Positions 5,786 to 38,173 of a DNA stretch of 40,860 bases are shown piece after piece. Position numbers and translations under genes: made by a program. The notes beneath the pieces were generated by a model. It made no database searches. It had not been told where the DNA came from and was given only the letters and a program-made list of their open reading frames with translations. This DNA comes from Minisyncoccota bacterium (GTDB lineage: Bacteria; Patescibacteriota; Minisyncoccia; Phycocordibacterales; JBAZVT01), in contig JBAZVT010000004.1 in the NCBI GenBank assembly GCA_041660745.1, positions 1 to 40,860 of the forward strand, written 5' to 3'. Within the stretch, counting starts at the first letter, position 1. Each line of letters starts with the position of its first letter.

Positions 5786-6979
5786 ATGCCCCAAATCAAA
5801 CCAGAAGTAGAAGCATTCGCACGCATTAAAGTCATTGGTGCTGGAGGTTCCGGAAAGAATGCGATAAACCACATGATTAATTCCAAAGTAAAAGGGATTG
5901 ATTTTATCGCAGTTAATACAGACGCCCAAGATTTGCACCACTCTCTTGCAAAGCGTAAAGTCCACATCGGCAAAAACCTCACTCGAGGACTTGGCACAGG
6001 TATGAATCCTGAACTTGGCAAACGTGCAGTTGAAGAAACAAAGGAAGAAGTTCAGGAAGCAATAAAAGGTGCTGATATGGTTTTCATTGCCTGTGGTCTC
6101 GGTGGCGGAACTGGCTCTGGCGCAAGTCCTGCAATCGCCCGTATCGCAAAAGAGCTCGGCGCTCTCACGGTGGCAGTTGTAACAAAACCATTTTTCTTTG
6201 AAGGTATGCAGCGTGTCCGTGTCGCAGAGCAAGCACTTGAAGAACTTCGCAAAGAAGTTGATGCTATTATTGTTGTTCCAAACGACAGACTCTTGAGCAA
6301 CATCACTAAAGAAACTACTGCAAAGGCAGCTTTCGCAATGTGTGACGACATCCTCAAACAAGCTGTGGAAGGTATTTCTGACCTTATCACTACCCCAGGT
6401 ATCATTAACATAGACTTTGCTGACATTAGAGCTGTCATGGCAAATGCCGGTTCAGCACTCATGGGTATTGGTTCCGCATCAGGCGAAAAACGTGCCGAAG
6501 AAGCAGCAAAAGCCGCAATTAACTCACCCCTACTTGAACTTTCTATTCATGGAGCAAAAGGTGTTCTGTTTTCAATCGCCGGCGGTGAAGATGTTACTAT
6601 GTTTGAAATCCAGGATGCAGCAAAAATCATCACCGAATCTATTGATCCAAATGCAAAGGTTATCTTTGGTACTGTCTATGATGACAAACTAAAAAAGAAC
6701 GAAATAAAGATCACAGTGATTGCTTCGGGTTTCCCAGAAATAGCCCAAAAGAAAAGCCTCTTCCATACCGAAGAATCAAAACAAATAAATCAGGATCAGC
6801 AGAAAGGTAAGATTTTTAATTCAGTACCAACCCAACAGAAAGAAGTGAAAGTCGAGGAAAAGAAATCAGAACCAGTTTTCACCCAACAGCCCGTCCGACA
6901 AGCTCCTCCTGTCATAGAAGATGAAAGTGATGATTGGAGTGCGGTACCCGCATTCTTGCGACGATCTAAATTGAAATAG
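5786..6979 (+). CDS. ftsZ: Cell division GTPase FtsZ
   Basis: GAGGSGKNAINHM, tubulin signature GLGGGTGSGASPAIA, NDRLL, conserved C-terminal peptide DDWSAVPAFLRR. Confidence 0.97.
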   Translation: MPQIKPEVEAFARIKVIGAGGSGKNAINHMINSKVKGIDFIAVNTDAQDLHHSLAKRKVHIGKNLTRGLGTGMNPELGKRAVEETKEEVQEAIKGADMVFIACGLGGGTGSGASPAIARIAKELGALTVAVVTKPFFFEGMQRVRVAEQALEELRKEVDAIIVVPNDRLLSNITKETTAKAAFAMCDDILKQAVEGISDLITTPGIINIDFADIRAVMANAGSALMGIGSASGEKRAEEAAKAAINSPLLELSIHGAKGVLFSIAGGEDVTMFEIQDAAKIITESIDPNAKVIFGTVYDDKLKKNEIKITVIASGFPEIAQKKSLFHTEESKQINQDQQKGKIFNSVPTQQKEVKVEEKKSEPVFTQQPVRQAPPVIEDESDDWSAVPAFLRRSKLK

Positions 6980-7015: not shown

Positions 7016-7051
7016 AAAATTATAATTTTTCTTAATCTTATATCCTGAATC

Positions 7052-7993
7052 ATGAATCTAGAATCTATTCAGTATGACTTGGCAATTATTGGTGGCGGTC
7101 CCGGCGGAGTCTCTGGTGGTATTTATGCTGCGCGCAAACGCCTAAAAACAGTTTTTATAACCGAGAGTTGGGGTGGTCAAAGCACTGTATCCGATGAAAT
7201 ACAAAACTGGGTTGGAACAATTGCAATATCTGGTCAAAAACTTGCCGACGACCTTAAAGCACATTTAAAGCATTACGCAGGTGAATCACTTTCTATACAA
7301 GACAATACCCGTGTTAAATCTGTTGAAAAAATTGAAGGCGGATTTTCTATACAAACAAACAAAAATACTTTTACAGCAAAAACAATCCTTATTACAACAG
7401 GAAGTCATCGTCGAAAATTAGACATCCTTGGTGCAAAGGAATTTGAGAACCGTGGTATCACCTATTGTGCTACCTGCGACGCTCCACTCTTCGGTGACAT
7501 GGACGTTGTGGTCATTGGTGGAGGCAATGCAGCCTTTGAATCAGCTATCCAGCTCACCGCATACGCAAAAAGCGTGACGCTTCTCAATCGCGGCGAAGAT
7601 TTCCGTGCTGATTCAGTAACGGTTGAAAAAGCCCTAAAAAATCCACGCTTCCGGGCAATACTGAACGCAGTACCAAAAGAAATAAAGGGTGAAAAATTTG
7701 TTTCTTCAATTATATATACCAACAAAGAAACTGATCAAGATATAGAACTTCCCGTCAGTGGTGTCTTTGTGGAAATTGGACTATTACCAAGTACAGATGC
7801 TTTTGAAAAAATAGTTGAACTAAATCAGTTTAAACAAATCATAACTGATCCCCGCACCCAACAAACAAAAACTCAGGGAATCTGGGCAGCTGGGGATTGT
7901 ACGGACGGCTACTACCACCAAAATAATATTGCAGCTGGGGACGCCGTAAAAGCTCTGGAAGACATCTATATTTATCTTCATAAGAATTCATAA
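7052..7993 (+). CDS. trxB: Thioredoxin reductase-like FAD/NAD(P) pyridine nucleotide-disulfide oxidoreductase
   Basis: DLAIIGGGPGG FAD fold, redox CATCD, VVVIGGGNAAFE NAD(P) fold, GIWAAGDC. Confidence 0.85.
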   Translation: MNLESIQYDLAIIGGGPGGVSGGIYAARKRLKTVFITESWGGQSTVSDEIQNWVGTIAISGQKLADDLKAHLKHYAGESLSIQDNTRVKSVEKIEGGFSIQTNKNTFTAKTILITTGSHRRKLDILGAKEFENRGITYCATCDAPLFGDMDVVVIGGGNAAFESAIQLTAYAKSVTLLNRGEDFRADSVTVEKALKNPRFRAILNAVPKEIKGEKFVSSIIYTNKETDQDIELPVSGVFVEIGLLPSTDAFEKIVELNQFKQIITDPRTQQTKTQGIWAAGDCTDGYYHQNNIAAGDAVKALEDIYIYLHKNS

Positions 7994-8053: not shown

Positions 8054-8590
8054 CTACGCCACGAGCGCAATAATATAGAGACCGACGAAATCAAGAACAA
8101 AAAGAAGGGTCGCAATATTTTTTCTTTTTAGACGAGACACCCCCATCAAAGCGATTCCAAGCTCGTCTGGAAATGGAGACATAATAACGAGTGCTCCAAA
8201 AATTCTCGTAAAAAATCTCACTATGGGTATCTTGAAAAGGCGAATTATTTTTGATTGACCTATTTTTTTTAAACCAATAATTAAATATTTGCCAATTTCA
8301 TCTTTTATAATGCTCAAAATAACCATATCACCGACAAGAGAACCGACGGTTGCAGCAAGAACAACATCAAAGGTGCTTCCCACTGAAAAGATCTTCAAGA
8401 GAATCACCAGGGCTGGAGTTGCTGTAAAAATAGACACAAAAAACATTCCTGCAAAAAATGCAGTGACGAGTCGCATACCCTCTGTGTATTGAAATATTAC
8501 ATTAAGCGCATCTGTCTGAACCAAAAGTACAGATATCATAATACTCAAACCAACAAGAGCAATATCTCTCAAAAAACCTAAATGCTTCAT
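8054..8590 (-). CDS. Multi-pass membrane protein, function unknown
   Basis: 178 aa, several hydrophobic segments. Its start overlaps the stop of the upstream transporter gene (ATGA at 8587-8590). Confidence 0.6.
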   Translation of the reverse strand: MKHLGFLRDIALVGLSIMISVLLVQTDALNVIFQYTEGMRLVTAFFAGMFFVSIFTATPALVILLKIFSVGSTFDVVLAATVGSLVGDMVILSIIKDEIGKYLIIGLKKIGQSKIIRLFKIPIVRFFTRIFGALVIMSPFPDELGIALMGVSRLKRKNIATLLFVLDFVGLYIIALVA

Positions 8591-9990
8591 ATGAAGAAAT
8601 CTTTAATTATTAAATAGGAAAAATAGATGTAGAACATTGCAGTAAGCCCGAGCATGCATGACATGAAGATACTTGGACGTGCATACCTCGGCAAAAAACG
8701 ATTATTAGCATACAGTAATATCGGCGTATATATTGCCATTGTTACCCCACCAAGAACAGAACTGATAAGAAGAAAGCCGAGGGGCTGATTGAACGGTACC
8801 AATATTGCTGCGACTAAAATAAAGCATGTCATAAGCCCGTAATACAAATGATGGACCGAGATAGGTTCCAACCAATGGAACATTTTAACAAGTGGTCCAA
8901 CGCGAGAGTTAGTATGAATAATATCTGTAACCATTCTTGTTAGAGCATCAAACACAGTCCACATAACAGAAAAGAGCATAAGATATGCCATAACAAGATA
9001 AATTTTTTCTCCCCAAATTCCCCACTCTGACCCAAAAATAGCTGCTTGTGCCACCGCAACGTGGGTACCTTCTGGAATAATGCCCTGTGGTGCCAGTACG
9101 ACTTGAGCATTTGCAGCAAGAAGAACCATTGAGATCAAACCTGTAAACCAAAAGATAACAACCTGATCAATACGCATAAAACGCATCCATCCATGCCAAT
9201 TTTTCATATTTTCAGGTGTATGCTCAAACGTAAACGAAGAAACGGCAATCGCTTCGTGTTTTCCTGTAACAGGATTTTCTATTCTCCCCACATACGCACC
9301 CATACCCGCCTGCTTGTCTCGATACCACAAACTAACACAGAGATTCAACATTCCACCCGCACCGGAAAAAACGACGGCACCAAGGAGAACTTTCATATCA
9401 ATACCCTCTGGTATCCACCCAAAATTAATCAAACCTTTAAACACATCCACAAGGTGGTTGCCTCCAAGTGTTTGAGTGCTAATAGCTATCAACATGAGGA
9501 GAAATAGCGGCACTATGATTTTAAGACTCCTTTCAAGCATTACGTATGCCACCTTCCCCTTTAAAGTAAGCAGTAGAACAAGACCAAGAGATATCCATGA
9601 CCACATCACATAACTTCCAAAACCAAATAATTCAGTAAGAATTGTTCCGAGAGCAGTTGCCCACCCTGGCCACACATACAGCAATACCGCTGATAGAAGC
9701 CAAAATATCGGAGACCACTTTAACACTCTGCCAGATGTCGTAAAAAAACTTTCCCCCGTAGCGAGTGAATGTCGAGCAACTTCATGGTTGATAATTAGTT
9801 GAAGTGTAATACCGACAAGCGCAAGCCATAAAATCCCTAGACCATACTTTACTACTAAGTGAGGCCACATGATAAGTTCTCCAGTTCCCATTGCCATTCC
9901 CATGACAACAATACCAACACCAATGGCAGTCCAGAGACGCGGGGCTGGGGGAAAATTTCTTTTTTCATGTGTTGGATATTGAGAATTCAT
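8587..9990 (-). CDS. Nramp-superfamily-like membrane transporter (divergent; lacks the DPGN and MPH metal-site motifs)
   Basis: Start trimmed to MNSQYP (ATG 9990). About 11 TM segments. GTGELIMWP...YGLGILWLALVGITLQLIINHEVARHSLATGESF parallels the Nramp TM1-TM2 block (GPG...DPGN...FGY.LLW....Q..ARLG..TG). Confidence 0.6.
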   Translation of the reverse strand: MNSQYPTHEKRNFPPAPRLWTAIGVGIVVMGMAMGTGELIMWPHLVVKYGLGILWLALVGITLQLIINHEVARHSLATGESFFTTSGRVLKWSPIFWLLSAVLLYVWPGWATALGTILTELFGFGSYVMWSWISLGLVLLLTLKGKVAYVMLERSLKIIVPLFLLMLIAISTQTLGGNHLVDVFKGLINFGWIPEGIDMKVLLGAVVFSGAGGMLNLCVSLWYRDKQAGMGAYVGRIENPVTGKHEAIAVSSFTFEHTPENMKNWHGWMRFMRIDQVVIFWFTGLISMVLLAANAQVVLAPQGIIPEGTHVAVAQAAIFGSEWGIWGEKIYLVMAYLMLFSVMWTVFDALTRMVTDIIHTNSRVGPLVKMFHWLEPISVHHLYYGLMTCFILVAAILVPFNQPLGFLLISSVLGGVTMAIYTPILLYANNRFLPRYARPSIFMSCMLGLTAMFYIYFSYLIIKDFFI

Positions 9991-10111
9991 ATTTTTAATT
10001 ATATCAGATTTTACTGGAAAAAAAATAATAATTCTGCTAGACTGTCTCATAGTTGGGCGGTTAACTGTTTTGGCTGATAACATCAAATTGGTACTTTTTA
10101 AAATAGATAAT

Positions 10112-10184
10112 GGGCGGTTAGCTCAGTTGGTAGAGCGCAACATTGACGTTGTTGATGTCAGAGGTTCGAATCCTCTACCGCCCA
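10112..10184 (+). tRNA. tRNA-Val (anticodon GAC), no encoded CCA
   Basis: Manual cloverleaf: gggcggt/accgccc acceptor, gctc/gagc D stem, caaca-ttGACgt-tgttg anticodon arm, agagg-ttcgaat-cctct T arm. 73 nt. Confidence 0.93.
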
Positions 10185-10223
10185 CAGAAAAAATCCCCTC
10201 TAGGGGATTTTTTGCTGGGCGGT
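10177..10223 (+). terminator. tRNA-Val trailer hairpin/terminator whose stem reaches into the acceptor 3' strand
   Basis: aaaaaatcccc (10188-10198) pairs with ggggatttttt (10203-10213). The outer pair is accgccca (10177-10184) with tgggcggt (10216-10223). Confidence 0.7.
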
Positions 10224-10248
10224 AAAAAATCTCCAGGGGAGATTTTGT

Positions 10249-10339
10249 GAGGATTCGAAAGCCGGAGCGCGACGGCGCGAGGCGGGGTCGCGAGATTTTT
10301 CAGTAGAAAAATACTCGTGACCGAATCCTTTACCCCCGC
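10249..10339 (+). ncRNA. Candidate structured RNA module in the tRNA-Val trailer (three-way junction closed by an anti-T / T-prime stem)
   Basis: gaggattcgaa (10249-10259) is the reverse complement of the tRNA-Val T-loop plus 3' T-stem. Hairpins at 10262-10285 and 10287-10321. cgaatcct (10322-10329) pairs with aggattcg (10250-10257). A G.T pair in the long hairpin is legal only on the + strand. Confidence 0.4.
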
Positions 10340-10433
10340 GGATAACCACAGTAAGTGATACTCCGAGCGTTTCTACCCCTTTGCAACTCTCATGTAAAAA
10401 ATTGCACCTTCCCAGGTATCACCCCACTGGCGT

Positions 10434-10547
10434 CACCACAGGAGTACTTCTATTTCCCTAATTCGTAAAACTCATAAGGGAAATAAGTTGCACCACAAGA
10501 GTACTTCTATTTCCCTAATTCGTAAAACTCATAAGGGAAATAAGTTG
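10434..10547 (+). repeat. Tandem direct repeat, 2 x 57 nt (56/57 identical), each unit a bulged hairpin
   Basis: Unit caccaca[g/a]gagtacttctatttccctaattcgtaaaactcataagggaaataagttg at 10434-10490 and 10491-10547. Internal stem tatttccct/agggaaata. Confidence 0.95.
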
Positions 10548-10643
10548 TACACAGTTTTCACTTGCAGTTCATGAAGACCAGCGTAAAATTATTATTAGGT
10601 CAGTACCACTTCGCTTCTTTCACTTTTAGCAGGGAGGATGGTC

Positions 10644-10937
10644 ATGTCACAACAGCAAGTCCGTGACACCCGAGGTAAGTTCCTCATCGTAGGCGTCTCC
10701 GGGCACAGCCTGAAGGAACTCAATGAAAGGCCGGATGTTATCATCTGGAAAAGTGATAAGAATACTCGAACGCAGAAACGAGTAGTCCCTTCATCGGTCC
10801 AGGTGATTATTGCTACAAAGACTCTCAGTCACGATGCATTCATACAGCTCAGAAAGGAGGCTCGACGAATCAAGGCAAGTTTTGACTTCATGTCAACCGG
10901 CCGCATCCGGGAAACTTTGGCGGGCTTCGGCGTTTGA
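10644..10937 (+). CDS. Hypothetical small protein (97 aa), G+C-rich; weak resemblance to DUF2325-type proteins
   Basis: GGGAGG lies 6 nt before the second ATG (10644), and a terminator follows. The pattern FLIVGVSG...VIIATKTLSHDAF...K resembles DUF2325 from memory only. Confidence 0.5.
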   Translation: MSQQQVRDTRGKFLIVGVSGHSLKELNERPDVIIWKSDKNTRTQKRVVPSSVQVIIATKTLSHDAFIQLRKEARRIKASFDFMSTGRIRETLAGFGV

Positions 10938-14420: not shown

Positions 14421-14543
14421 ATGCATAAATTTTCACAGGGAATAACTGTTGCTACTCGACCAGTACAGGTTTCCCATTTTTTCAGATTCAGAAATCATCA
14501 AAAACACGGGAGAACCTTTTCGATTCTGCGTGGGGACTACAAA

Positions 14544-14640
14544 TACCCAATGGGGAATCTCTCCTTACAGGAGCGGTACACCTCTTCCATTTTCTGTTCG
14601 GAACAACTCCAGAAAATTATCAGAGGTCTTCGATTCCCCG
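14544..14640 (-). ncRNA. Candidate structured RNA module in the tRNA-Glu trailer (junction closed by an anti-T / T-prime stem)
   Basis: - strand cggggaatcgaa (plus coordinates 14629-14640) is the reverse complement of the tRNA-Glu T-loop plus 3' T-stem. Hairpins at 14580-14627 and 14561-14573. gattcccc (14552-14559) closes the junction. Confidence 0.4.
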
Positions 14641-14664
14641 ACGCAACATTTTCCAAATGTTGCT

Positions 14665-14718
14665 TGAGGTCACAAAATAAAAACCGCCCAAAAGAGCAGT
14701 TTTTATTTTGTGACCTCA
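14665..14718 (-). terminator. tRNA-Glu trailer hairpin/terminator: 19-bp perfect inverted repeat that includes the acceptor 3' strand
   Basis: tgaggtcacaaaataaaaa (14665-14683) pairs with tttttattttgtgacctca (14700-14718); the right arm overlaps the tRNA 3' end. Confidence 0.7.
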
Positions 14719-14782
14719 CGGGGAATCGAACCCCGATTACAGCCTTGAAAAGGCCGTGTCCTAACCGTTAGACGATGAGGCC
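14711..14782 (-). tRNA. tRNA-Glu (anticodon UUC), no encoded CCA
   Basis: Manual cloverleaf on the - strand: ggcctca/tgaggtc acceptor (one G.U), cggcc-ttTTCaa-ggctg anticodon arm, cgggg-ttcgatt-ccccg T arm. 72 nt. Close to the E. coli tRNA-Glu layout. Confidence 0.9.
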
Positions 14783-14900
14783 AGAATAATTTACATTCGG
14801 ATGACTACTTTATCAGATAAAGTTGTTTAACCGAAACTAACTGCAATACTATAGCATTTTTTGTAAAAAACGCAAAAAAATGTTAACATTCGGGCTTAAT

Positions 14901-14987
14901 GGAGGATTGGCTGAGCGGTTGAAGGCACCGCACTCGAAACGCGGCAAGGGCGAAAGTCCTTCGGGAGTTCAAATCTCCCATCCTCCG
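14901..14987 (+). tRNA. tRNA-Ser (anticodon CGA), type II with long variable arm, no encoded CCA
   Basis: ggaggat/atcctcc acceptor, tggctgagcggttgaaggc D arm typical of tRNA-Ser, anticodon loop ctCGAaa (A31.C39 mismatch), variable arm agggcgaaagtccttc, gggag-ttcaaat-ctccc T arm. Confidence 0.88.
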
Positions 14988-15012
14988 CAGGAATTTAAAA
15001 CGAAGTTTTAAA

Positions 15013-15128
15013 GGGAGATTTGAAGACCTTGAGTATATCGCACGGACGATTGAGCACTATCGTGGCTTGGCCTCGGAGCGAGTAGGATACGAAAGGTGTA
15101 CAGAAACTGTAAGTTTCAAATCCCACCA
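15013..15128 (+). ncRNA. Candidate structured RNA module in the tRNA-Ser trailer / tsaD leader (anti-T / T-prime closed)
   Basis: gggagatttgaa (15013-15024) is the reverse complement of the tRNA-Ser T-loop plus 3' T-stem (14968-14979). ttcaaatccc (15115-15124) is a degenerate direct copy that can pair back. Small hairpins (acgat/atcgt, ctcg/cgag, taca/tgta) lie in between. Confidence 0.35.
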
Positions 15129-15150
15129 AATAATGAATTGATAAAATATT

Positions 15151-37564: not shown

Positions 37565-37987
37565 TTACTGATTTTTAATATATTTATTCATTCGCCACTT
37601 CCTACCATTTCCCCTGTTGAGGTTCTTATAAAAAGGAGTGAGAGCGTGACAATTTGGACATAGTAGTTTGAGATTATCTTCTTGATTATTTTCTGAATTA
37701 CCATCTACATGTTCTATTTCTAACGGAACAACACCTGTAACTGGATGGTGTTTAGCCCAACTGCATTCAACACATTTATTATTAAATTTCTCTATAAAAT
37801 ATCGTTTTAAATGTTTAGAAATATTTCTTGTCGCTATACCCCTATTGCCCTGCAATAATCCATTTTTCCATAACCCTATCCATTTTTTATATTGAAAATC
37901 CATCTGACACTTGTTGGAACAGAATTTTATTTTATGTCTTTCTGTCAACAGAGACTCGCAACCAATACAAAATCTATCTTTTTTCAT
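37565..37987 (-). CDS. HNH endonuclease with an N-terminal Cys-rich zinc-finger-like segment
   Basis: C.EC...........LEIEHVDGNSENN..DNL.LLCPNCHA beta-beta-alpha-Me motif; CIGC....C..KC at the N-terminus. Confidence 0.85.
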   Translation of the reverse strand: MKKDRFCIGCESLLTERHKIKFCSNKCQMDFQYKKWIGLWKNGLLQGNRGIATRNISKHLKRYFIEKFNNKCVECSWAKHHPVTGVVPLEIEHVDGNSENNQEDNLKLLCPNCHALTPFYKNLNRGNGRKWRMNKYIKNQ

Positions 37988-38050: not shown

Positions 38051-38108
38051 AGATGGCTCACAAAATAAAAACCGCACCTTTGTGCGATTTTTATTTTGTG
38101 AGCCATCT
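38051..38108 (-). terminator. tRNA-Thr trailer hairpin/terminator: 21-bp perfect inverted repeat that includes the acceptor 3' strand
   Basis: agatggctcacaaaataaaaa (38051-38071) pairs with tttttattttgtgagccatct (38088-38108); inner cgcac/gtgcg stem. Confidence 0.7.
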
Positions 38109-38173
38109 GTCAGGATCGAACTGACGACATCTACTTTACAAAAGTAGTGCTCTACCAACTGAGCTAAGATGGC
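38101..38173 (-). tRNA. tRNA-Thr (anticodon UGU), no encoded CCA
   Basis: - strand gccatct/agatggc acceptor, gctc/gagc D stem, ctact-ttTGTaa-agtag anticodon arm, gtcag-ttcgatc-ctgac T arm. 73 nt. Confidence 0.92.

Follow-up and report, generated by a model that had tools for sequence, protein, structure and literature searches.

Behind the tRNA-Val gene of a Minisyncoccota bacterium (contig JBAZVT010000004.1 of assembly GCA_041660745.1, of which the stretch of 40,860 nucleotides analysed here is called the window) lies one copy of a family of conserved folded non-coding elements that is found at the ends of tRNA and transfer-messenger RNA (tmRNA) genes in at least two phyla. The elements are about 100-250 nt long and are built around a core of 65-135 nt, here named E, in which three helices meet at a junction of about 25 near-invariant bases. 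Read along the tRNA strand, the shared layout is a tRNA ending in a segment X (T-loop to 3′ end), a variable hairpin (hp1), an optional inverted copy of the acceptor 3′ strand (anti-acceptor), a second hairpin (hp2) preceded by A and followed by GU, an inverted copy of the T-loop and 3′ T-stem strand (anti-T), the core hairpins and, finally, a direct copy of the tRNA end (X′). We propose, with somewhat less than even confidence, that the element is an intron-like passenger of tRNA genes, which would be co-transcribed with them and sequester itself. An earlier sequence-only reading of the tRNA-Val trailer had described its parts; the core conserved in at least two phyla, hp2 as a part of the family, the start of X′ at C56 of the tRNA and the tmRNA carriers go beyond it.

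The extent of the family was seen with a literal core pattern taken from the tRNA-Val copy of the window (AAAG-N-CGGAG ... GAG-N-CGGGGTCG ... GTGACC), which matched at least 120 metagenome contigs, and with a covariance model (R1, alignment A1) built from 14 copies of E, which identified 163 copies in 852 kb of fetched DNA, many of them not fitting the literal pattern. The census loci were themselves fetched with the literal pattern, so that the census is biased and the conserved columns are partly imposed by that pattern; a second core type, described below, lies outside the model. Among 161 copies of E, 122 were located at most 450 nt downstream of a tRNA gene detected by ARAGORN and on the same strand, at a median distance of 57 nt, with nearly all tRNA isotypes represented. 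Further copies stood behind tmRNA genes, as recognized by a match to RF00023 (loci L106 and L128) or as judged from sequence (L067 and L074), and others were found behind tRNA genes with group-I-intron-like inserts, at contig edges, or as later units of tandem arrays. The tRNA genes interrupted by group-I-intron-like sequence (..GATATAGTCC..) and then followed by E, at L093 (~6150-6350), L107 (~880-1090) and L124 (~1600-1800), had been missed by ARAGORN.

The association with tRNA genes could also be seen independently of the core. When 10-nt exact matches to anti-T and/or X′ were sought downstream of the tRNA genes of related loci, 123 of 212 genes were positive, as compared to 3 of 197 when the upstream side was used and 29 of 959 when a tRNA was paired with the trailer of another tRNA. 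Within a genome, the element is confined to some of the tRNA genes. The hosts include Patescibacteria (Parcubacteria/Minisyncoccia, with the window and L010) as well as Elusimicrobiota, the latter on the basis of an AlaRS in L112 that is 66-76% identical to proteins named Elusimicrobia, with the host taxonomy resting on few named records. The G+C content of the loci ranged from 30% to 65%.

Across the family, E consists of helix P2, formed by anti-T with X′ from C56, followed by AAA, helix P3, GG and helix P4. P3 has a G-N-C/G-N′-C base, a GGA/GA internal loop and a variable hairpin of 9-39 nt, and P4 reads GGUCG../..GUGACC with a conserved G.U pair, C-G or A.G as the next pair and a variable apex. 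The N:N′ pair at the base of P3 was C:G in 42 copies, A:T in 26, G:C in 17 and T:A in 6, with 1 mismatch. In a 133-sequence alignment, which was fitted to the R1 model itself, the paired cells reached 91.9% versus 68.9% in shuffled controls, 28 of the 30 pairs varied on both sides, and the covariation score was 0.552 as compared to 0.159 for shuffled alignments and 0.06-0.09 for slid partners. The three-way junction that the sequence-only reading had drawn was thereby borne out, as was its view that the plus strand is the one that folds, because P3 and P4 contained 77 G.U or U.G pairs versus 13 A.C or C.A pairs (the conserved G.U pair, present in 123 copies, being counted apart), an excess showing that the folded strand is the tRNA-sense strand. 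The same asymmetry led us to reject a convergent gene on the opposite strand, encoding an acceptor/T-arm minihelix that would end at the shared hairpin; moreover, the plus strand of the window copy was predicted to fold better than the minus strand, with -63.7 versus -54.7 kcal/mol, the fold of the element alone being the three-way junction (z=-6.1).

Outside the core, hp2 is a conserved part of the family: about 35 of 92 copies show the form A-GCRAG-NNNN-CUGC-NNNN-CUYGC-GU, and 43 different stems were counted; hp1 is highly variable across the family. A kissing contact between the CUGC loop of hp2 and GCAG apical loops was considered and found, by inspection, to be inconsistent across copies. 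It was also noted that C-GNA-G triloops (ACGAAGT, GCGAAGC, ACGGAGT) with tandem G.A pairs on their flanks are unusually frequent in hp1 and in the apexes of P3 and P4 of many loci, as exemplified by L012, L015, L027, L031 and L109. Such triloops and tandem G.A pairs are motifs of very stable DNA mini-hairpins, and here they may represent either an RNA motif or mini-hairpins of that kind.

In the window, the six parts that the sequence-only reading had listed behind tRNA-Val were all found where it had placed them, except that the anti-acceptor is one nucleotide longer than given there and that hp2, described as nearly identical to hp1, resembles it only in composition (Table 1). The whole element occupies 10186-10338. 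Segment X thus recurs twice behind the gene, once inverted and once direct, and the anti-acceptor and anti-T together make up one contiguous reverse complement of the last 20 nucleotides of the tRNA (positions 54-73), split by hp2 between the complements of positions 65 and 64. The 5′ strand of P2 is formed by nucleotides 10250-10257 of anti-T, the terminal AA of which is shared with the AAA of the junction, and the 3′ strand by the first 8 nt of X′. By fold prediction, X, hp1 and anti-X form a 20-bp hairpin with hp2 as a branch, hp1 being the apex of this long hairpin and resembling a bidirectional terminator. The 11-mer of anti-T would be expected 0.01 times in the window and was found twice, in tRNA-Val itself and in its trailer, and the split inverted pattern would be expected 0 times, so that a chance origin of the inverted copy is excluded, as had been argued earlier.

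Table 1. Parts of the tRNA-Val trailer element and its host gene in the window
Feature	Positions	Strand	Description and basis
tRNA-Val(GAC) gene	10112-10184	+	ARAGORN; Rfam RF00005 at 71.1 bits; CCA not encoded
X	10165-10184	+	T-loop, 3′ T-stem strand, 3′ acceptor strand and discriminator (tRNA positions 54-73); direct sequence reading
hp1	10188-10213	+	A6-GC stem-T6 hairpin, AAAAAATCCCC/TCTA/GGGGATTTTTT; sequence reading and fold prediction
Anti-acceptor	10216-10224	+	TGGGCGGTA, 9 nt; exact reverse complement of tRNA positions 65-73
hp2	10225-10248	+	24-nt segment; 9-bp hairpin (10226-10234 with 10238-10246, loop AGG) flanked by A and GT
Anti-T	10249-10259	+	GAGGATTCGAA; exact reverse complement of tRNA positions 54-64
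Core E	10258-10322	+	65 nt; covariance model R1, 106.1 bits (copy belongs to the model seed)
Junction AAA of E	10258-10260	+	
P3	10261-10283	+	G-N-C/G-N′-C base, GGA/GA internal loop, 4-bp stem, loop GACG
Junction GGG of E	10284-10286	+	
P4	10287-10321	+	GGUCG../..GUGAC, conserved G.U pair, A/UA internal loop
X′	10322-10338	+	CGAATCCTTTACCCCCG; direct copy of the tRNA from C56, 14/17 positions equal

Comparisons with catalogued families gave no match to the element. Rfam release 15 (4227 families) identified only tRNA in the window at the gathering threshold, only noise of at most 19 bits between 10000 and 10700 at an expectation value up to 10, and nothing overlapping the core in 20 carrier loci at an expectation value up to 1. 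None of the ribozyme models of Rfam (hammerhead, twister, twister-sister, pistol, hatchet, hepatitis delta virus (HDV)-like and hairpin) matched the core, nor did its riboswitch and aptamer models or the group I intron models; the tRNA upstream of E is complete, and the group-I-like inserts of some carrier tRNAs lie in the tRNA body and not in E. The hammerhead core is CUGANGA/GAA, to which the junction strands of E (AAA, GG, none) by eye do not conform. No match to the element was obtained by blastn in phage and plasmid collections, and the strict core pattern had no match in IMG/VR; a relaxed pattern gave two matches there, both due to chance (no model match and no adjacent tRNA). Full-text literature searches yielded no description of the element.

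Two further candidate identities were rejected. The sequence-only reading had considered a tRNA-mimic RNA, and the element does resemble the tRNA-like domain of tmRNA, YrlA, mascRNA and viral 3′ tRNA-like structures in that its T-loop sequence and acceptor 3′ strand are those of a real tRNA; however, the T-loop bases are buried in P2, a helix of roughly 10 bp where 5 would be expected, conservation of the acceptor-like stem was not seen, and no tRNA, tmRNA, YrlA or other tRNA-like model matched. A repeat derived from a miniature inverted-repeat transposable element or an insertion sequence (IS) was discarded since the flanks differ with each host tRNA, the duplicated stretch is tRNA sequence of 8-21 nt, and copies on the same contig are only 52% identical at variable columns. 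The element appears to lack one or more of the features that define each family tested, and we have therefore provisionally filed it as a new kind.

The flanks were next compared with the host tRNA in 92 family members. X′ started at C56 in every copy and was identical through the annotated 3′ end of the tRNA in 45 of the 92, including CCA where this is encoded in the gene; in 7 copies the identity continued for at least 8 nt into the trailer, and at least four of these (L012, L014, L024 and L068) visibly repeat either the trailer that comes next or the complete unit of X, trailer, anti-T and E. The length of exact X′ identity was bimodal, with a stub of 7-10 nt sufficient only for P2 in 18 copies, full identity in 48 and few in between, the duplications covering 8-21 nt of tRNA sequence. 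Anti-T matched at 8 or more of 10 positions in 64 of the 92 copies, with one subclass having GA in place of UC and thereby tandem G.A pairs in P2, and an anti-acceptor of at least 7 nt was seen in about 15. Full X′ was present in 2 of 10 copies having a long anti-acceptor versus 43 of 69 others (p=0.016); a long anti-acceptor thus goes with a short or degenerate X′, from which it follows that the anti-acceptor has the real end of the tRNA, on the other side of hp1, as its partner and not X′. An acceptor-like outer stem of anti-acceptor with X′ was accordingly weak in the window copy and not conserved in the family.

We also asked which of X and X′ anti-T follows where these two differ. A count of 57 versus 13 was contaminated by X′ indels and inserted hairpins and was abandoned; in a position-wise recount X′ was overall closer to X than anti-T is, and no conclusion on the partner was drawn. 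Among 40 cases in which the gene encodes no CCA, X′ contained CCA in 8, a frequency far above random (p=2e-7) but indistinguishable from the share of tRNA genes in which CCA is encoded (13%; p=0.23). Together with the X′ of the window tRNA-Ser, which matches the T arm of the L005 version of tRNA-Ser, this hints that X′ may predate the present tRNA end or be foreign to it, as a trace of a separate history of X′ and not as proof of an RNA origin.

The elements are gained, lost and exchanged over longer times. Near-identical cores were found at tRNA-Ser in L066 and tRNA-Leu in L079, and likewise at two different tRNA-Leu genes within L079, with the flanks matching the own tRNA in each case. Tandem units occurred at L012, L014, L024 and the tRNA-His gene of L010, where different subtypes are stacked behind a single tRNA, and decayed copies were also seen. 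In the window, tRNA-Glu is followed by a split inverse copy too, likewise with a 24-nt hairpin, and tRNA-Ser by anti-T and X′, whereas behind tRNA-Thr (38100-38173, minus strand) a 10-nt inverted copy of the tRNA 3′ end lengthens the terminator stem and core E is absent; the layout of X, its reverse complement and X′, which the sequence-only reading had seen to recur, was thus found again at tRNA-Glu and tRNA-Ser, partly at tRNA-Thr, and at many related loci. An open reading frame (ORF) for an HNH endonuclease (37565-37987, minus strand) lies directly downstream of tRNA-Thr.

The window TsaD resembles Parcubacteria homologues, and the closest relative is represented by L001-L003 (TsaD 88% identical), three contigs that are identical and hence show no insertion polymorphism among them. 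Its tRNA-Val and tRNA-Ser share the trailer layout, and the hp2 stem of L001 has a wholly different sequence with complementarity kept. The G+C-rich core found behind tRNA-Val in the window sits behind tRNA-Ser in L001, so that the core type differs at both genes between the two genomes, and the tRNA-Glu gene of the relative has no element. A more distant relative (TsaD 57%) had no element at 7 tRNAs. In a scan of 185,579 species genomes, the layout anchored on tRNA-Val was found in two further genomes, one of them from the Minisyncoccia and carrying a trailer element at 4 of 4 tRNA genes on its 8-kb locus. The segments made up of tRNA and element are inverted between the window and L001 with the flanking genes keeping their orientation, as seen for 10040-10340 and 14490-15135 (divergent tRNA-Glu and tRNA-Ser) of the window and 7040-7460 and 9380-10000 of L001; a 499-aa transporter ORF (8587-10086) of the window is missing in the relative.

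The second core type stands between anti-T and X′ in the tRNA-Glu and tRNA-Ser trailers of the window (14490-14709, minus strand, and 14989-15135, plus strand), and also at tRNA-Val of L001, tRNA-Val of L009, and tRNA-Arg and tRNA-Leu of L010. In this type, a long hairpin (GAA-RACCU..AGGU) is followed by the sequence GUAC and then by a small hairpin that has a covarying stem and the pentaloop UGUAA.

Direct repeats from the T-loop to the 3′ end of a tRNA are what an island that has integrated in a tRNA or tmRNA gene classically leaves, and the trailers could accordingly be viewed as passive scars, with X and X′ being attL and attR leftovers of deleted integrase-borne islands, the inverted copy a terminator palindrome grown by template switching, and the hairpins incidental. 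As in tRNA- or tmRNA-integrated islands and prophages, the segment from the T-loop to the 3′ end is the target, the tRNA stays intact, a direct repeat of its 3′ segment lies beyond the insert, and units accumulate in tandem; furthermore, the window tRNA-Thr has the extended terminator palindrome only. At L058 (360-5900), a 5.3-kb island with genes for a large serine recombinase and a Schlafen/AlbA_2 protein does sit at such a site, exactly between tRNA-Tyr and the trailer element. Unlike islands, the elements are inserts of 100-250 nt, are non-coding, have no consistently linked recombinase or other integrase, and combine an exact inverted copy of the target with a covarying strand-specific junction under purifying selection. 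Scars would not have in common, in two phyla, a 65-nt core in which 28 pairs covary, nor keep E identical at 88 of 88 positions while the flanks diverge by 10% (see below). We therefore hold this explanation to be extremely improbable; it is contradicted for the core, although the anti-acceptor extension and some of the X′ copies could still have arisen in this way. Of the possibilities raised in the sequence-only reading, an element that targets tRNA 3′ ends fits best, considering target-matched flanks on near-identical cores, tandem units, tmRNA targets and gain and loss, while plain scars or att-like sites are too weak an account in view of the selection on the core; control of pre-tRNA folding or processing, another of these possibilities, could also apply.

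The serine recombinase of L058 was also evaluated as the possible enzyme of the element and rejected, as its island was inserted independently, between the tRNA and an element that was already there, and homologues were found at only 4 of about 125 loci. The right end of the island is homologous in L125 (1-480), and L058 has a 150-nt inverted duplicate of the 3′ end of the recombinase gene upstream of that gene.

A different kind of mobile element would be a tiny integrative one whose recombination site is folded single-stranded DNA, akin to the attP(+) of CTX-phi or the attC of integrons. The X:anti-X hairpin would then imitate the duplex end of the tRNA gene, a host or helper recombinase would join it to the T-loop of the tRNA, and replication would fix the insertion and leave X and X′, with E and hp2 serving as structures for protein recognition or replication. 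This would explain an exact inverted copy of the target beside a pair of direct repeats, as well as the strand-specific folding with tolerated G.T pairs (77, versus 13 A.C), and the C-GNA-G triloops and tandem G.A pairs mentioned above would fit a DNA stage. It would also agree with the fixed orientation, the stacked subtypes behind tRNA-His of L010, the choice of tRNA and tmRNA targets, the usual shortness of X′ in copies with a long anti-acceptor, and the presence in the window copy of a terminator-like hp1, by which transcription would be blocked. With CTX-phi attP(+), integron attC and the palindromic mini-elements of IS200/IS605, the elements have in common mismatched strand-specific hairpins, inverted target copies, a non-coding nature and a multi-copy occurrence. 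Nevertheless, in contrast to attC and the CTX attP, the target is a tRNA end, the flanks are tRNA-specific and no matching enzyme is linked: neither a recombinase nor a rolling-circle Rep gene accompanies the elements, and the IMG/VR, phage and plasmid collections held nothing. Most copies have an anti-T of only 8-10 nt, too short to imitate a full att site, and purifying selection on resident copies would be unexpected for an integrated att site. We thus find a single-stranded DNA site quite unlikely.

The evidence for selection came from two pairs of orthologues, the all-against-all blastn having yielded only three useful related pairs. Between L072 and L112 the flanks were 89.5-90% identical, and the tRNA (72 of 72 positions) and E (88 of 88) were unchanged, with two of the four differences in the 56-nt spacer constituting a compensatory change of an hp2 pair (G-C to A-U). 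Between L018 and L115, E and hp1 were nearly identical and the flanks diverged or could not be aligned. Judged by these sequences, E appears to be held constant by purifying selection to the same degree as the tRNA itself. At L072 (1766-1865) and L112 (4857-4956, minus strand) a second core E follows directly after the first in opposite orientation, and the block made up of the reversed E and then a third copy of the tRNA-Arg 3′ end with trailer is equal at 163 of 170 positions.

Such constraint would also be expected of a regulatory or quality-control switch of the host in the pre-tRNA trailer, with E as an aptamer-like or protein-binding junction. With E bound and P2 stable the tRNA would mature, and with P2 open anti-T, together with the anti-acceptor where present, would unfold the tRNA, which would be discarded, thus tuning stable-RNA output. 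The predicted energies of the two alternative pairings, anti-T with X or with X′, are nearly equal, and about 25 near-invariant junction bases beside variable peripheral stems are aptamer-like; the selection equal to that on the tRNA, the age of copies within a genome (see below), the scarcity of terminators between tRNA and E, and the presence of the element at tmRNA genes point in the same direction. Like riboswitches, attenuators and the T-box, the element has a junction of invariant bases, a closing helix whose 5′ strand has an alternative partner, and a tRNA as partner; unlike them, it lies downstream in the same transcript, pairs with the T arm and acceptor 3′ strand instead of the anticodon or CCA, controls no obvious gene, the downstream genes being unrelated between copies, and matches no riboswitch model of Rfam. 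A sensor located downstream of the tRNA that it controls could not act co-transcriptionally. The element is, moreover, dispensable or swapped between close relatives, as in the lack of an element at tRNA-Glu of L001 and the differing core types at tRNA-Val and tRNA-Ser, it is carried by just a fraction of the tRNA genes of a genome, and it forms tandem arrays and decayed copies. We consider such a switch a rather unlikely alternative.

Whether the elements are transcribed was judged from promoter-like and terminator-like sequences. A promoter-like site lies ahead of tRNA-Val (10077-10104) and none was found between tRNA-Val and E in the window, and only 11 of 92 copies had a canonical terminator between tRNA and E, so that most copies should be co-transcribed with their tRNA, which makes co-transcription plausible. 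In a simple terminator scan of the tRNA-Val trailer hp1 was not flagged, because its T run sits within the stem. For the transcript of tRNA plus element, RNAfold predicted pairing of X with anti-X and of the tRNA 5′ acceptor strand with X′ (-113 kcal/mol, z=-8.8). Anti-T can thus pair with either the real T arm or X′, as the sequence-only reading had pointed out, and the real tRNA end is the predicted preference in a read-through transcript. On paper there are two competing folds, and the form taken in the cell would depend on the order of folding and processing.

That the minimum-free-energy fold of the whole transcript is exactly an exchange of X for X′ raises the possibility of a domain-swap or spare-part RNA, in which X′ would be the 3′ portion of the tRNA in an alternative fold, X would be sequestered by anti-X, and E would be an insertion in the T-loop; in one variant E would catalyse or assist exchange of the segment from T-loop to CCA, like a T-loop intron or a repair cassette. 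The layout of guide, structured core and 3′ exon copy resembles that of engineered trans-splicing ribozymes. Approximately 75% of copies have no anti-acceptor, and the tRNA 5′ strand is then the only possible partner for the acceptor portion of X′, yet X′ is perfect to the gene end in 43 of 69 such copies; X′ is perfect even with diverged cores (the two tRNA-Leu genes of L079), and it often encodes CCA. However, the upstream tRNA is always complete and splicing hence unneeded, X′ is reduced to the P2-only stub in 18 intact copies, and perfect X′ can also be explained by unequal crossing-over between X and X′, tandem units being seen. A core of 65 nt is also far below the size of any known self-splicing intron, and no group I model matches it. 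This makes a domain swap highly improbable in our view. A broader proposal, still very unlikely, is that E may be a small catalytic or ligand-responsive RNA that toggles two nearly equal folds, with the duplicated segment from C56 to the 3′ end as a replacement part, for example as a T-loop intron whose removal would join U55 to the downstream copy, or for renewal of a damaged tRNA or tmRNA 3′ end. If true, this would be a new kind of RNA-level maintenance or control of tRNA at many tRNA genes of uncultivated phyla.

Mobility over longer times and strong constraint over shorter times are reconciled by an intron-like passenger, which is the reading that we tentatively prefer. The element would enter, or be copied, at the segment from the T-loop to the 3′ end, with the tRNA kept intact and X′ left behind. 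The direct repeats X and X′ would then drive tandem amplification as well as clean loss, the inverted flank would be kept matched to the real tRNA, and unequal exchange at the shared T-loop sequence would probably re-template X′ on the local tRNA, with its start at C56. Transcription would proceed from the tRNA promoter, for the window copy by read-through. Pairing of anti-T with X′ in P2 would close E and keep anti-T off the T arm of the tRNA, so that the tRNA could fold and be cut out normally, and the invariant junction of E would be the working part, either as a recognition site or as a small catalytic core, for processing or propagating the element RNA. Like group I introns in tRNA genes and the HDV-like ribozyme of R2, the element would be a structured passenger that pairs with host-gene sequence, has a patchy, mobile-like distribution, and is conserved since misbehaviour would harm the host gene; it differs from these by its position after a complete tRNA, its core of 65-135 nt, its lack of any model match, and the lack of a linked homing endonuclease or reverse transcriptase.

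Several observations weigh against a passenger. No transposase, integrase or reverse transcriptase was consistently found near the elements, and the strand asymmetry of the core would also arise from a folded single-stranded DNA stage. The identity at variable columns was 0.52 for copies on the same contig versus 0.43 for copies on different contigs, so that same-contig copies are only slightly more alike than others and a recent intragenomic burst was rejected; the copies instead look old and individually maintained, which fits a host function as well as a passenger. The window copy seems to be an exception with regards to co-transcription, since its hp1 looks like a strong bidirectional terminator, and E would there be transcribed by read-through only. 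The read-through transcript is, finally, predicted to misfold the tRNA, an outcome that would not be expected of a harmless passenger.

If this view of the family is correct, a conserved structured element has gone unrecognised behind many tRNA and tmRNA genes of Patescibacteria and Elusimicrobiota. The few widespread structured RNAs of bacteria that lack an assigned function would then gain a new class, and a candidate ribozyme, aptamer or recombination structure would be at hand. This bears on tRNA genes as landing sites for mobile DNA, and on the handling of pre-tRNA trailers in organisms with reduced RNA-processing machinery. For annotation, the elements explain many seemingly empty gaps of 100-300 nt after tRNA genes and many partial tRNA matches, and with its 65 nt the core is small enough for direct biochemistry.

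Some further observations were made near the tRNA genes discussed here. Partial copies of the tRNA-Val 5′ end (GGGCGGTTA..) were seen about 50-80 nt upstream of the gene in the window (10054-10066), in L001 (7440-7456) and in L005 (8990-9065), the form in L005 being two tandem degenerate 5′ halves; occurring in three genomes, they suggest that tRNA 5′ ends leave duplicates too. In L001 (9713-9925), a 19-nt copy of the tRNA-Ser 5′ end is located 115 nt upstream of the gene with hairpins in between, including one with the ACGAAGT apex as in the short hp1 of many trailer elements, and by its sequence this may be a counterpart of the trailer element on the 5′ side. Downstream of the tRNA-Val element, a 57-nt unit occurs twice with 98% identity (10434-10547), containing a hairpin (tatttccct/agggaaata) with the loop AATTCGTAAAACTCATA, upstream of a 99-aa ORF (10638-10937) with a weak match to DUF2325. 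One copy of the hairpin unit, with compensatory changes in its stem, precedes the orthologous ORF in L001 (7545-7590), and this repeat may be a separate conserved leader structure.

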